Shown in pieces: positions 43,575 through 49,042 of a DNA stretch of 49,042 nucleotides. The stretch comes from an uncultured Bacilli bacterium (GTDB taxonomy: Bacteria; Bacillota_I; Bacilli_A; RF39; UBA660). The position numbers were made by a program, and so were the translations under genes. The notes beneath the pieces were generated by a model that saw only the letters and a list, made by a program, of their open reading frames with translations, was not told where the DNA came from and ran no database searches. Numbering within the stretch: position 1 is the stretch's first letter; each line of letters starts with the position of its first letter. Location: contig CANRJE010000002.1 of the NCBI GenBank assembly GCA_947630865.1, forward strand, positions 1 to 49,042. The letters are read 5' to 3'.

Positions 43575-43620
43575 CTAGTTAAAAGGCTTTTAATTTGGTA
43601 TTCTAAAGATGGAGGTGAAA

Positions 43621-44235
43621 ATGAATTTAGGAGAAAAATTAACTAAGTTAAGAAAGGAGAATAAGTTATCTCAAGAAAAACTAGCCGATATTTTAGGAGT
43701 AACAAGACAAACACTTTCAAATTGGGAAAGTGATATTACATCACCTGATTTAAAACAAGCTAAGAAAATTTCTGAAATATTTGAAGTATCTCTTGATGAA
43801 TTAACAGGTTGTCAAAATTTCTTGGAAAAGAAAATATTAAATACTGAAAAATTAGCCAAAAAGCAAGTTAAATTTACAAAAGTTTTACTATTAACAATTT
43901 ATATTTTAGTTTTAATAGGTTTACTGTCATTAGGAATTTATTGTTTTACTTTAAGAGATTTTACTAAGCCTTATCAAGAGAACTTCCTATGTGAACATGG
44001 TGATGAAAAAATTTCTATTTCTTTAAGTGGGGGAGGTAATCTTTATTATGATGAAGAAAAGCATGAAGAAATTTCAACAGGAGATATATGGAAAGTGATA
44101 GCAATTTCATATGAAGGTGATGATAAAGATGGTATAAAAACCGAAATGAGTGCAGGTTATTCTTATAAAGATGCTATTGAATCTCTTAACTACATTAAAA
44201 AAGCAATTGTTAGTTTAGGTGGAACTTGTCGTTAG
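43621..44235 (+). CDS. membrane-tethered XRE-family HTH regulator (small extracytoplasmic domain)
   Basis: HTH LSQEKLADILGVTRQTLSNWES. TM VLLLTIYILVLIGLLSLGIYCF. GGAGGTG RBS before ATG 43621. Confidence 0.75.
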   Translation: MNLGEKLTKLRKENKLSQEKLADILGVTRQTLSNWESDITSPDLKQAKKISEIFEVSLDELTGCQNFLEKKILNTEKLAKKQVKFTKVLLLTIYILVLIGLLSLGIYCFTLRDFTKPYQENFLCEHGDEKISISLSGGGNLYYDEEKHEEISTGDIWKVIAISYEGDDKDGIKTEMSAGYSYKDAIESLNYIKKAIVSLGGTCR

Positions 44236-44851: not shown

Positions 44852-45502
44852 ATGAAAATAGTATTAAAAAAGGTTAAAGATTTAATTTTAAAAAATTTAA
44901 AATGGATAATATTATTTCTTTCATTGATAGAATTTCTTTGGTTACTAGAAGGAGTATTTAGTGAAGAAATTTTAGATTTTGATTTAAAAGGATATACACT
45001 TATTAAAACTTATTTGATGAGTGATTTTACAACTAGTGTTTTTAAAGTTATAACTAATTTAGGTGGAGGATTATTTATAATTATTTTAGCTTTTTCTTTA
45101 TTTTTAATTATTAAAAGAAGAGAAGTAGGTTTAGTAATATTTGCTAATCTCGGAATTATAACACTTTTAAATTTACTATTAAAAAATATTGTTTCACGAC
45201 CTAGACCAAGTGATTTTAGGATAATAGAAGAGAGTGGTTATAGCTTTCCATCTGGACATTCAATGATTAGTATGGCTTTTTATGGTTTATTAATTTATTT
45301 AATATATAAAAACTTTAAGAATAAATATATCAAGTGGTCTTTAATTGTTGTTTTAAGTTTATTAATTATTTTAATTGGTATTAGTCGTGTTTATTTAGGT
45401 GTTCATTATTTAAGTGATGTTTTAGCAGGATTTTTATTAGCAATTTCTTATTTAATCATTTATATAAGTGTTATAAATAAATATATTTTAGAAAGGAAGT
45501 AA
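44852..45502 (+). CDS. PAP2-family phosphatase, BcrC-like (probable undecaprenyl-diphosphate phosphatase)
   Basis: KNIVSRPRP (Kx6RP), PSGHS and SRVYLGVHYLSD (SRx5Hx3D) motifs. Polytopic. Confidence 0.8.
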   Translation: MKIVLKKVKDLILKNLKWIILFLSLIEFLWLLEGVFSEEILDFDLKGYTLIKTYLMSDFTTSVFKVITNLGGGLFIIILAFSLFLIIKRREVGLVIFANLGIITLLNLLLKNIVSRPRPSDFRIIEESGYSFPSGHSMISMAFYGLLIYLIYKNFKNKYIKWSLIVVLSLLIILIGISRVYLGVHYLSDVLAGFLLAISYLIIYISVINKYILERK

Positions 45503-45909: not shown

Positions 45910-46659
45910 ATGAATGAGTTTAATAAAACTTTTCTTCTAGAAATGATAAAATCACCAATCGTTATTGCTTTTATTATTATAGGTTTATTTGGTTTATTTT
46001 TTTATAAAAAATTTCGTGGATTCATGGGAGAATTTTGGGTTCGAAAAGAATTATCAAAATTACCTAAAAAGGAATATTATGTTTTAAATAATATAATGTT
46101 AGAAAGTAGCAGAGGAATGCATCAAATAGATCATATTGTTGTTTCTAAATATGGCATTTTTGTTATTGAAATGAAAAACTTTTTTGGTCTTATTAAAGGA
46201 AATGAATATGATAAAAAGTGGATTCAACAATTTCATAATAAGAAGTATTATTTTCAAAATCCCATTCATCAAAATTATGGACATCTTCAGGCTTTAATAG
46301 AAATATTAGGATTACAAAAAGATGTTTTTATTCCAATTGTTTGTATTTCAAATCAAGCTAACTTAAAAGTAAAAACTACGAGTAATGTAGTTCAATTAGA
46401 TTTTTTAATTTCTTTAATAAAATCTTATCAAACTGTTATTGTAAATTGTGATTTGCAAACAATTAAAACAAAATTAGAAATGTTAAATATTAAAGATTAT
46501 AAAAAAAGACGTCTGCATATTTCAAATATTAAAGAAAATGTTAAAAATGAAGATATGATTTGTCCAAAATGTGGTGGTAAATTAATTGAAAAAAATGGTA
46601 AATATGGTAAATTTGTTGGTTGTAGTAATTTTCCTAAATGTCGTTTTGTAAAAAAATGA
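45910..46659 (+). CDS. NERD-domain protein with N-terminal TM and C-terminal topoisomerase-type C4 zinc ribbon
   Basis: GEFWVRKEL, HQIDHIVVSKYGIFVIEMKN (NERD core). CPKCGGKLIEKNGKYGKFVGCSNFPKCRF. Confidence 0.75.
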   Translation: MNEFNKTFLLEMIKSPIVIAFIIIGLFGLFFYKKFRGFMGEFWVRKELSKLPKKEYYVLNNIMLESSRGMHQIDHIVVSKYGIFVIEMKNFFGLIKGNEYDKKWIQQFHNKKYYFQNPIHQNYGHLQALIEILGLQKDVFIPIVCISNQANLKVKTTSNVVQLDFLISLIKSYQTVIVNCDLQTIKTKLEMLNIKDYKKRRLHISNIKENVKNEDMICPKCGGKLIEKNGKYGKFVGCSNFPKCRFVKK

Positions 46660-46784: not shown

Positions 46785-48430
<1,646 letters not shown>

Positions 48431-48495
48431 TAAAAATAACTAATTTGTTTAGTAGTTTAAAAGAATTTGTCTAAATTTAACAATAAAAAAAAATA

Positions 48496-48524
48496 TTGTC
48501 AACATATCAGACATTTGCTATAAT
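48496..48524 (+). promoter_or_regulatory. sigma-A promoter of small-peptide cassette 1
   Basis: TTGTCA, 17-nt spacer, TGCTATAAT (extended -10). Confidence 0.6.
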
Positions 48525-48584
48525 GACTTTGGAACATTTAATTGTTGGGTGATGCCAAACTTCTTAATGAAGGGAGGCGATAGT

Positions 48585-48668
48585 ATGAACAAGAAGGATT
48601 TTTTAATTCTATCTTTAGTAATTCTTATTTTCCTTTTAGTATTATTATTATTTATAGTTTTAATATAA
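48585..48668 (+). CDS. 27-aa hydrophobic peptide, candidate type I toxin (cassette 1)
   Basis: GGGAGG RBS 8 nt upstream. MNKKDFLILSLVILIFLLVLLLFIVLI. Not in the ORF track (too short). Paralog at 48912. Confidence 0.5.
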   Translation: MNKKDFLILSLVILIFLLVLLLFIVLI

Positions 48669-48780
48669 AAGAAAATCACCTAAACAACATGCTTAGGTGA
48701 TTAACCATATAAAATATTGGCAACACTCAACATGTGAAAATTAAGTGTTCCTTTTTTATTTTATGAAGTTTCCTTCATCT
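48665..48780 (-). ncRNA. predicted antisense small RNA convergent with cassette 1 (candidate type I antitoxin)
   Basis: Minus-strand promoter TTGACA (48815-48810), 17-nt spacer, TGTTAGTAT (-10 at 48792-48787). Minus-oriented terminator: 10-bp hairpin 48674-48702 followed on the minus strand by TTTCTTTTAT. Ends are approximate. Confidence 0.4.
48722..48762 (+). terminator. plus-strand intrinsic terminator of cassette 1 mRNA
   Basis: AACACT / AGTGTT stem followed by CCTTTTTTATTTT. Confidence 0.5.
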
Positions 48781-48822
48781 ATATACATACTAACATAATT
48801 TTAATGATTTGTCAAAGTAGCA

Positions 48823-48851
48823 TTGTCAACATATCAGACATTTGTTATAAT
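48823..48851 (+). promoter_or_regulatory. sigma-A promoter of small-peptide cassette 2
   Basis: TTGTCA, 17-nt spacer, TGTTATAAT. Near-identical to the cassette 1 promoter. Confidence 0.6.
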
Positions 48852-48911
48852 GACTTTGGAACATTTAATAGTTGGGTGAAGCCGAACTTCATAAAGAAGG
48901 GAGGTGATAAT

Positions 48912-48992
48912 ATGTCAAAGAAAGATTTTTTAATATCTTCATTGATTATCATTATCCTTTTACTTATAGGTTTATTGTTTATAACACTATAA
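48912..48992 (+). CDS. 26-aa hydrophobic peptide, candidate type I toxin (cassette 2)
   Basis: GGGAGGTG RBS. MSKKDFLISSLIIIILLLIGLLFITL. The 62-aa track ORF (48804..48992) is an in-frame upstream extension running across the promoter. Confidence 0.5.
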   Translation: MSKKDFLISSLIIIILLLIGLLFITL

Positions 48993-49042
48993 TAAAAGAG
49001 TCACCTAAACAACATGCTTAGGTGATTAACCAAATAATTGGC

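Follow-up and report, generated by a model that had tools for sequence, protein, structure and literature searches.

The last 650 bases of a 49,042-nucleotide (nt) stretch of DNA from an uncultured Bacilli bacterium (NCBI GenBank assembly GCA_947630865.1, contig CANRJE010000002.1, positions 1 to 49,042; referred to here as the window) are filled by two tandem cassettes that lie upstream of pyrG and have a mutual identity of 78–91%. The first of these cassettes is likely to be a module resembling type I toxin-antitoxin systems, from which two convergent RNAs would be made: a messenger RNA (mRNA) for a small peptide, predicted to have 27 amino acids (aa) and one transmembrane segment, and an antisense RNA that would pair with the 3’ region of this mRNA. 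Judging by the searches described below, the module represents a new sequence family with a layout of the bsrG/SR4 and txpA/RatA type, described in no database searched. The antisense transcript is predicted; conservation and covariation among relatives establish its gene signals and its structure. A preliminary description of this DNA had already proposed a ~115-nt small RNA of the minus strand with its own promoter and terminator; this proposal is supported by the conservation of the -35 box and of the TG preceding the -10 box, by hairpin covariation and by a strand bias of G·U pairs. The features of cassette 1, including its open reading frame (ORF), its Shine-Dalgarno (SD) sequence and its hairpins, are as follows.

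48496–48524, plus strand: promoter of peptide mRNA 1 (TTGTCA, 17 nt, TGc TATAAT)
48531–48760, plus strand: predicted mRNA 1 for the peptide (toxin), ~230 nt, G48531 to T-run; both ends are predicted
48531–48558, plus strand: 5’ arm of the 5’-3’ closing helix, GGAACATTTAATTGTTGGGTGATGCCAA
48554–48578, plus strand: local hairpin with the SD, GCC..CTTC-ttaat-GAAG..GGC (SD GGGAGG at 48572–48577)
48585–48668, plus strand: peptide ORF 1, 27 aa and stop codon, MNKKDFLILSLVILIFLLVLLLFIVLI
48665–48702, minus strand: intrinsic terminator of the antisense RNA, consisting of the hairpin 48702–48674 and a U-rich tail that reaches the peptide stop codon
48666–48780, minus strand: predicted antisense RNA 1, ~115 nt, with a 5’ hairpin, an A-rich linker, a middle hairpin and a terminator hairpin with U-tail
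48717–48751, both strands: second hairpin region; middle stem-loop of the antisense RNA (minus strand), or 3’ arm of the closing helix together with a weak terminator stem (plus strand)
48752–48762, plus strand: T-run at the predicted end of the peptide mRNA (TTTTTTATTTT), with no gap between it and the closing helix; in the antisense RNA (minus strand), this stretch forms the A-rich linker
48763–48778, minus strand: 5’ hairpin of the antisense RNA, AUGAAG-GAAA-CUUCAU (ATGAAG-TTTC-CTTCAT in the plus-strand DNA), starting 2 nt after the predicted transcription start
48787–48815, minus strand: promoter of the antisense RNA, TTGACA (48815–48810), 17 nt ending in TGt, TAGTAT (48792–48787)

A minus-strand promoter conserved among relatives

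Promoter-like sites are as frequent between positions 46000 and 49042 (22 found) as in shuffled sequences (23.2 expected), so that in a stretch this rich in A and T a single site of this kind is not in itself evidence of a promoter. The TTGACA, the 17-nt spacer with its TGT and the TAGTAT at 48787–48815 of the minus strand are present as first reported, but the site is not the strongest promoter-like element, as had been claimed: it matches the consensus at 10/12 positions, against 11/12 for both plus-strand peptide promoters (48496 and 48823). The case for the promoter comes from related cassettes. A scan of metagenomes with a degenerate pattern extending over the T-run and the -10 box (CTTTTTTATTNTATGA-N19-CATAMTA) returned at least 120 loci from human, bovine and rabbit gut, several of them in records labelled human gut, and 99 non-redundant cassettes were drawn from these loci. 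At positions left free by the pattern, where all promoter counts were taken, TG directly precedes the -10 box (extended -10) in 95/99 cassettes, the best -35 box stands at a spacer of 17 nt in 89/99, and this box matches TTGACA at four or more of six positions in 91/99 (TTGAAA, TTGCAA, TTGACA and TTGATA, a TTGnnA pattern), compared with 2–3/6 in shifted controls. Column conservation collapses immediately past the -35 box. Conservation of these signals, a sigma-A signature, across 99 related cassettes shows that the minus-strand site is no chance match. Eight more ORFs of the family, detected in these loci independently of the pattern, likewise carry the antisense module (8/8), 113–121 nt past their stop codon.

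The whole block 48752–48815 (T-run, 5’ hairpin, start site and promoter) is ~90–100% conserved among loci L002–L121, also at the 19 positions that the pattern leaves free, whereas the ORFs and the other hairpins have strongly diverged. The 5’ hairpin and the A-rich module are nearly invariant; other parts of the peptide subfamilies described below have diverged to ~55% column identity. It is very unlikely that there is no functional antisense RNA and that this block is a DNA-level element (an operator, a recombination site or the end of a mobile cassette), with hairpins that serve the mRNA only. The conservation looks like that of a promoter (TTG, 17 nt, TG, -10) and ends abruptly past the -35 box, a T-tailed terminator lies ~115 nt downstream on the same strand, and both G·U asymmetry and stability favour minus-strand folding of all three hairpins, even though a DNA element would agree with the far better conservation of the block than of the rest of the cassette, with an inverted repeat in the block that could be an operator, and with the location of some cassettes next to transfer RNA (tRNA) or transfer-messenger RNA (tmRNA) genes. 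No trans target was found for the block.

Structure and strand of the antisense RNA

The predicted antisense RNA folds into three hairpins with an energy of -36.6 kcal/mol (z-score -6.2). The hairpin at 48674–48702, the first one after the peptide stop codon (first hairpin), has 13 pairs and a 3-nt loop; its minus-strand copy continues into TTCTTTTAT, and no T-run follows it on the plus strand. Its orientation as a terminator for a leftward transcript, part of the preliminary description, is borne out by this strand-specific tail, by covariation (11/11 pairs of the terminator hairpin show compensatory changes) and by its greater stability on the minus strand (-15.6 versus -11.8 kcal/mol on the plus strand). 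Members of the family have an A-run ahead of the first hairpin on the plus strand, corresponding to the U-tail of the minus-strand terminator. Two terminator-like sites were found between 46000 and 49042, against 0.7 expected, and both are minus-strand first hairpins, one per cassette. That of cassette 2 (49001–49025) likewise has a T-rich minus-strand tail, and this cassette was rightly said to share the hairpin and to be cut by the end of the window.

To assess the fold, 39 sequences with identities below 88% were aligned (A1). RNAalifold recovered the middle and terminator hairpins, with compensatory changes in 17/19 pairs. For the complete three-hairpin structure, 91% of alignment cells pair, compared with 35–38% in controls with slid partners, two-sided changes occur in 20/27 pairs, and none of 500 shuffles reached the observed values. 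Compensatory variants of the 5’ hairpin include ATGAG..CTCAT, ATGAAT..ATTCAT and ATGAGC..GCTCAT.

Because a G·U pair turns into a C·A mismatch when the opposite strand is read, G·U pairs show which strand folds. Among the 99 cassettes, the non-Watson-Crick pairs are G·U on the minus strand in 46 cases and on the plus strand in 4 for the first hairpin, and in 60 and 8 cases, respectively, for the second; the minus:plus counts in A1 are 22:6, 70:23 (second hairpin region) and 11:5. The predicted stabilities lean the same way, the middle hairpin reaching -12.9 kcal/mol (z -4.0) on the minus strand versus -5.8 kcal/mol (z -0.25) on the plus strand, and the 5’ hairpin -6.1 versus -4.0 kcal/mol. A covariance model built from A1 (R1) gives the minus strand of cassette 1 a score of 105 bits, against 29 bits for the plus strand.

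The weak plus-strand match (29 bits) covers the 3’ untranslated region (UTR) at 48656–48756 and places the first hairpin where the model has the middle hairpin and the second where it has the terminator; the two strands have a similar layout of two hairpins and a T-run. A mini-ORF of five codons (ATG AAG GAA ACT TCA TAA) in the antisense 5’ hairpin was also considered, and rejected because its stop codon varies among relatives (CATAAAAT, CATACAAT and CATATAAT variants).

The peptide mRNA and its closing helix

The ORFs of cassettes 1 and 2 encode 27 and 26 aa, each with an SD and a sigma-A promoter; the start of ORF 1, previously placed at 48586, is corrected to 48585. In the family, the -10 box of the peptide promoter matches at five or more of six positions in 46/65 cassettes. 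The leader of cassette 1 is 54 nt long, and its SD lies in a local hairpin, an equivalent of which (anti-SD/SD, CCTCC..GGAGG) is found in other subfamilies; in the folding model, the mean probability that the SD is unpaired is ~0.2.

The ~28 nt with which the mRNA begins (GGAACAUUUAAUUGUUGGGUGAUGCCAA) show complementarity to the two arms of the second hairpin region (48717–48751), with G·U at the mismatches. The duplex of 48531–48558 with 48717–48751 comprises ~27 bp (-34.7 kcal/mol), and duplexes between cognate 5’ and 3’ UTRs of 64 cassettes have a mean energy of -33 kcal/mol, compared with -14 kcal/mol for shuffled and -23 kcal/mol for non-cognate partners. The predicted fold of the full-length mRNA 1, in which the 5’ end pairs with the 3’ end, has an energy of -62.6 kcal/mol (z -6.9), and the minimum-energy fold closes both ends in every subfamily examined. 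On a second alignment (A2), 84% of the cells of this closing helix pair, versus 37–46% in slid controls, both sides change in 20/27 pairs, and 0/500 shuffles reach these values. The first paired base lies 7–8 nt past the plus-strand -10 box, at the predicted transcription start, in 49/65 cassettes.

Because the 5’ end of the mRNA pairs with the second hairpin region, and does so with covariation, the functional mRNAs are predicted to include this region, and they probably end at the T-run that abuts the closing helix (~48757–48762). The elements of the plus-strand terminator noted earlier, AACACT/AGTGTT followed by a T-run (48719–48762 including the T-run), are present; this second hairpin is weaker than the first. 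With an mRNA that extends through the second hairpin region to the T-run, the two RNAs would overlap by ~95 nt (48666–48760), positions ~21–115 of the antisense RNA being perfectly complementary, by position, to the 3’ UTR, and the ~95-nt complementarity originally suggested is supported. Termination of the mRNA at the first hairpin, which would leave no such overlap, is contradicted by the covariation of its 5’ end with the second hairpin region.

The same covariation bears on an arrangement like that of par/Fst, in which the mRNA would end at the first hairpin (a shared bidirectional terminator), the overlap would be confined to this hairpin, and the 5’ domain of the antisense RNA would act in trans on the ribosome-binding region. 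The position of the first hairpin directly after the stop codon fits this arrangement, as does the strongly conserved antisense 5’ domain (hairpin and A-rich linker) outside the main overlap, and SprA1/SprA1as and Fst/RNAII do act through non-overlapping regions (PMC8594479). We regard it as scarcely probable, since the plus strand has no T-run after the first hairpin, the mRNA 5’ end covaries with a region 3’ of that hairpin, the pairing of the antisense 5’ domain with the 5’ UTR and start region is only ~2.7 kcal/mol better than in shuffles and has no consistent site, and Pfam gives no Fst match.

It had also been suggested, more speculatively, that TTTCCTTCAT in the 3’ region of the mRNA is complementary to the ribosome-binding site (RBS). 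The complementary motif exists, at 48770–48779 rather than at about 48766–48775, but an anti-SD role for it is not supported: it lies beyond the T-run, where it overlaps the 3’ arm of the antisense 5’ hairpin, and although it would pair with the RBS at -12.4 kcal/mol in the window, the family mean is -10.3 kcal/mol versus -8.1 kcal/mol for shuffles, or only ~2 kcal/mol better. Read-through transcripts that include TTTCCTTCAT are possible. The conserved long-range contact of the mRNA is the helix between its 5’ end and the second hairpin region, not an anti-SD interaction.

Proposed mode of action

In the mechanism that we propose, the sigma-A promoter at 48496–48524 would produce the ~230-nt mRNA for the 27-aa peptide, closed by pairing of its first ~28 nt with its last ~35 nt and with its SD held in the local hairpin; the closing and the SD hairpin are shown by sequence analysis, folding and covariation. 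The convergent extended -10 promoter (48815–48787) would produce the ~115-nt RNA from near 48780, ending at the peptide stop codon. This RNA would pair with the 3’ UTR of the mRNA, by analogy with txpA/RatA and bsrG/SR4; the first contact would probably be made between the 8–10-nt loop of its middle hairpin and a bulge that the closing helix leaves single-stranded, because the loop is complementary to this bulge. By the same analogy, the duplex would be cut by RNase III, which is encoded in the same genome. Being complementary to the helix’s 3’ arm, the antisense RNA has nearly the same sequence as the mRNA 5’ end, and its pairing should also displace that end from the helix, exposing it to decay. 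The peptide would be made only when the antisense RNA falls short.

Several points weigh against this reading. The search pattern fixes the T-run and the -10 box, the conservation of which is therefore by construction, and biases the sample towards close relatives of the module. The stem of the plus-strand terminator is weak in the window (-5.8 kcal/mol, z -0.25), and read-through is possible for this reason. Public RNA runs with related sequences consist of unstranded contigs with the same depth profile as DNA runs; one 166-nt metatranscriptome contig has an end no more than 2 nt away from where the antisense RNA is predicted to start, but at a depth of 2.5, and is given no weight as support. 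Lastly, folding models, which cannot settle the point, give the SD a probability of being unpaired of 0.22 in the free mRNA and of 0.21 with the 3’ UTR blocked, and similar values in 50/67 mRNAs. An SR4-like effect on translation is thus not supported by these models, and with SD accessibility unchanged only the decay route remains, resting on pure analogy.

A bolder version of the mechanism, possible but rather doubtful, is that the antitoxin chiefly mimics the mRNA 5’ end, invading the ~28-bp closing helix and stripping both mRNA ends of protection, rather than simply providing a substrate for RNase III; separately, the 5’ hairpin and A-rich module common to at least four subfamilies might be a handle for a protein partner, for a ribonuclease or for cross-talk between tandem cassettes.

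Comparison with known type I systems

In the type I pairs of Bacillus subtilis, 100–140 bp are shared at the 3’ ends, RNase III cuts the duplex and the RBS is sequestered (PMC6562991), and in Gram-positive type I families generally the antisense RNA lies on the 3’ side (PMC8594479). The module resembles bsrG/SR4, txpA/RatA, bsrE/SR5 and yonT/SR6 in combining the mRNA of a small hydrophobic peptide with a convergent small RNA that has its own promoter, in the long pairing at the 3’ ends (~95 nt here, 100–140 bp there), in the sequestration of the RBS in a short helix and in the availability of RNase III (PMC6562991). The arrangement foreseen for it, that of txpA/RatA and bsrG/SR4 with convergent transcription and long 3’-end overlap, is the one predicted from the gene signals. 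It differs from these systems in that the RNA has no Rfam similarity and the peptides match nothing in Pfam or NCBIfam, the models of these databases giving no sign of homology with any of the four; the antisense RNA is also shorter (~115 nt) and barely enters the ORF, no SD change like that caused by SR4 in bsrG is predicted, and the hosts are uncultured, very AT-rich gut Bacilli, whereas the B. subtilis systems lie in Bacillus prophage regions. As for the general traits of type I systems, a hydrophobic ORF of less than 60 aa with its own promoter and RBS is present, and an antisense gene that has a promoter and a terminator of its own and whose RNA would be complementary to the toxin mRNA is present at the sequence level only.

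The par system of Enterococcus faecalis (Fst/RNA II) and SprA1/SprA1as of Staphylococcus aureus share with the module the convergent genes, a terminator hairpin that closely follows the stop codon of the toxin ORF and an antisense RNA whose 5’ domain lies outside the overlap (PMC8594479). These two systems act via complementarity outside the overlap, in direct repeats (par) or in a 5’ domain directed at the RBS (SprA1) (PMC8594479), whereas in the module the long overlap is itself the complementary region and no significant trans-complementarity was found. Moreover, unlike that of par, the first hairpin terminates the minus strand only. The module does not group with Fst/RNA II: the plus strand has no T-run after the first hairpin, there is no Fst_toxin match, and the complementarity of the 5’ domain is weak and unlocalised.

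The full-length toxin mRNAs of hok and aapA1 are locked by long-distance pairing of their 5’ and 3’ regions. The mRNA described here is similar to those of hok/Sok and Helicobacter pylori aapA1/IsoA1 in being closed by pairing of its extreme ends, with covariation, but the antisense RNA of those systems binds the 5’ part of the processed mRNA and that of the module would bind the 3’ arm of the closing helix.

Beyond a few model Firmicutes and Proteobacteria, the cataloguing of type I systems is poor, both partners being tiny and unannotated. The family offers clear gene signals that can be checked for both RNAs, has R1 as its covariance model and comprises at least four subfamilies of peptides. 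If the proposed reading is true, it would extend the bsrG/txpA-type architecture to new lineages and provide a compact natural example of an antisense target that is one arm of the mRNA’s own closing helix; gains would include better annotation of gut metagenome-assembled genomes (MAGs), with small membrane-active peptides and RNA regulators as new candidates.

Distribution and variation of the family

A genome scan with the core of the first hairpin found a single GTDB genome, a rabbit-gut MAG labelled ‘uncultured Bacilli’ (L001), which retains the block 3’ of the hairpin, including the minus-strand promoter, and in which no second cassette follows. Metagenome contigs aligned to the locus contain many diverged variants from rabbit and bovine gut. 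The family is common in human, bovine and rabbit gut metagenomes, and probably in those of chicken gut, where it belongs to very AT-rich uncultured Bacilli. At least four peptide subfamilies of 25–31 aa can be recognised, each with a K/R-rich N-terminus, one hydrophobic helix and an SD; representative peptides are as follows.

27 aa: MxKKDFLI...
30 aa: MKKRNFVIKVLRY...VIKK
25 aa: MSKKEKSLHRII...
29 aa: MRKKDLLI...IKK

Searches of nine peptides against Pfam, NCBIfam, PHROGs and PADLOC gave nothing significant, a search of 48380–49042 against Rfam at E <= 10 gave only noise (best E >= 1.6, unrelated families), and a text search of the literature for the peptide motifs returned no paper. The locus had no blastn match in the plasmid and phage collections, and in scans of viral contigs neither the antisense module nor the B-type 5’ UTR pattern turned up; three matches of viral contigs to the A-type pattern were dismissed as chance.

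The peptides could also be harmless small membrane proteins, in which case the antisense RNA would be real and would regulate the mRNA but the pair would not be a toxin-antitoxin system. Their lack of a match to any toxin family and an SD predicted to be largely sequestered, whatever the state of the antisense RNA, are compatible with this alternative, which we nonetheless consider unlikely. Several traits are among those by which type I toxins are recognised (PMC2887945 as described in PMC8594479; PMC6562991): the peptides have 25–31 aa and a single hydrophobic helix, repression would have several layers (closing helix, SD hairpin and antisense RNA), and the cassettes are amplified in tandem, some copies having a truncated ORF and an intact antisense module.

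Tandem arrays of 2–3 cassettes occur in 17 loci. In several arrays (L043, L054, L059, L060, L077, L108 and L116), the first cassette has lost the 5’ half of its ORF, the promoter and the leader, with the antisense module intact, and these 5’-truncated cassettes look like orphan antitoxins. Some cassettes directly abut tRNA-Leu(CAA), a tmRNA gene or another tRNA gene (L093 229–314, L097 286–371, L114 2341–2719 and L019 ~515–600). Such neighbours could mark hot spots of insertion, and they probably account for the very high contig depth in a chicken-gut metatranscriptome (X36).

The second cassette and the gene surroundings

The G+C content of the window is 24%, and its long ORFs read well with genetic code 11. 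An Rfam search of the whole 49 kb yielded no family at gathering score (no riboswitch, T-box, ribosomal RNA or other Rfam RNA), no dedicated tRNA scan being run, and an exact look-up of the PyrG of the window, aimed at the sequence past its end, returned no record. The features that accompany cassette 1 are as follows; RNase III had been correctly placed in the window.

21979–22650, plus strand: rnc (RNase III), with Pfam domains Ribonucleas_3_3, Ribonuclease_3 and dsrm
46785–48386, minus strand: pyrG
48823–49042, plus strand: cassette 2, with its promoter at 48823–48851, 5’ UTR from 48858, ORF at 48912–48992 (MSKKDFLISSLIIIILLLIGLLFITL) and first hairpin at 49001–49025

Cassette 2 begins 8 nt beyond cassette 1 and is cut by the end of the window after its first hairpin. 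R1 detects a 5’-truncated copy of its antisense RNA (48993–49042, minus strand, 21.8 bits), and a complete second antisense module is present in tandem relatives such as L019. A protein with a NERD nuclease domain and a C-terminal topoisomerase-type zinc ribbon (45910–46659, plus strand) adjoins pyrG, and an HTH_3 regulator (43609–44235) and a PAP2 phosphatase (44852–45502) are encoded just upstream of the NERD protein. In each cassette, the -35 box of the peptide promoter (TTGTCAA) reads TTGACAA on the opposite strand, and upstream of cassette 1 there is a second minus-strand promoter-like site directed towards pyrG (TTGACA/17 nt/TAAATT with TG, 48474–48502). Between the cassettes, the antisense promoter and the promoter of cassette 2 stand back to back, 7 nt apart (48810–48828).

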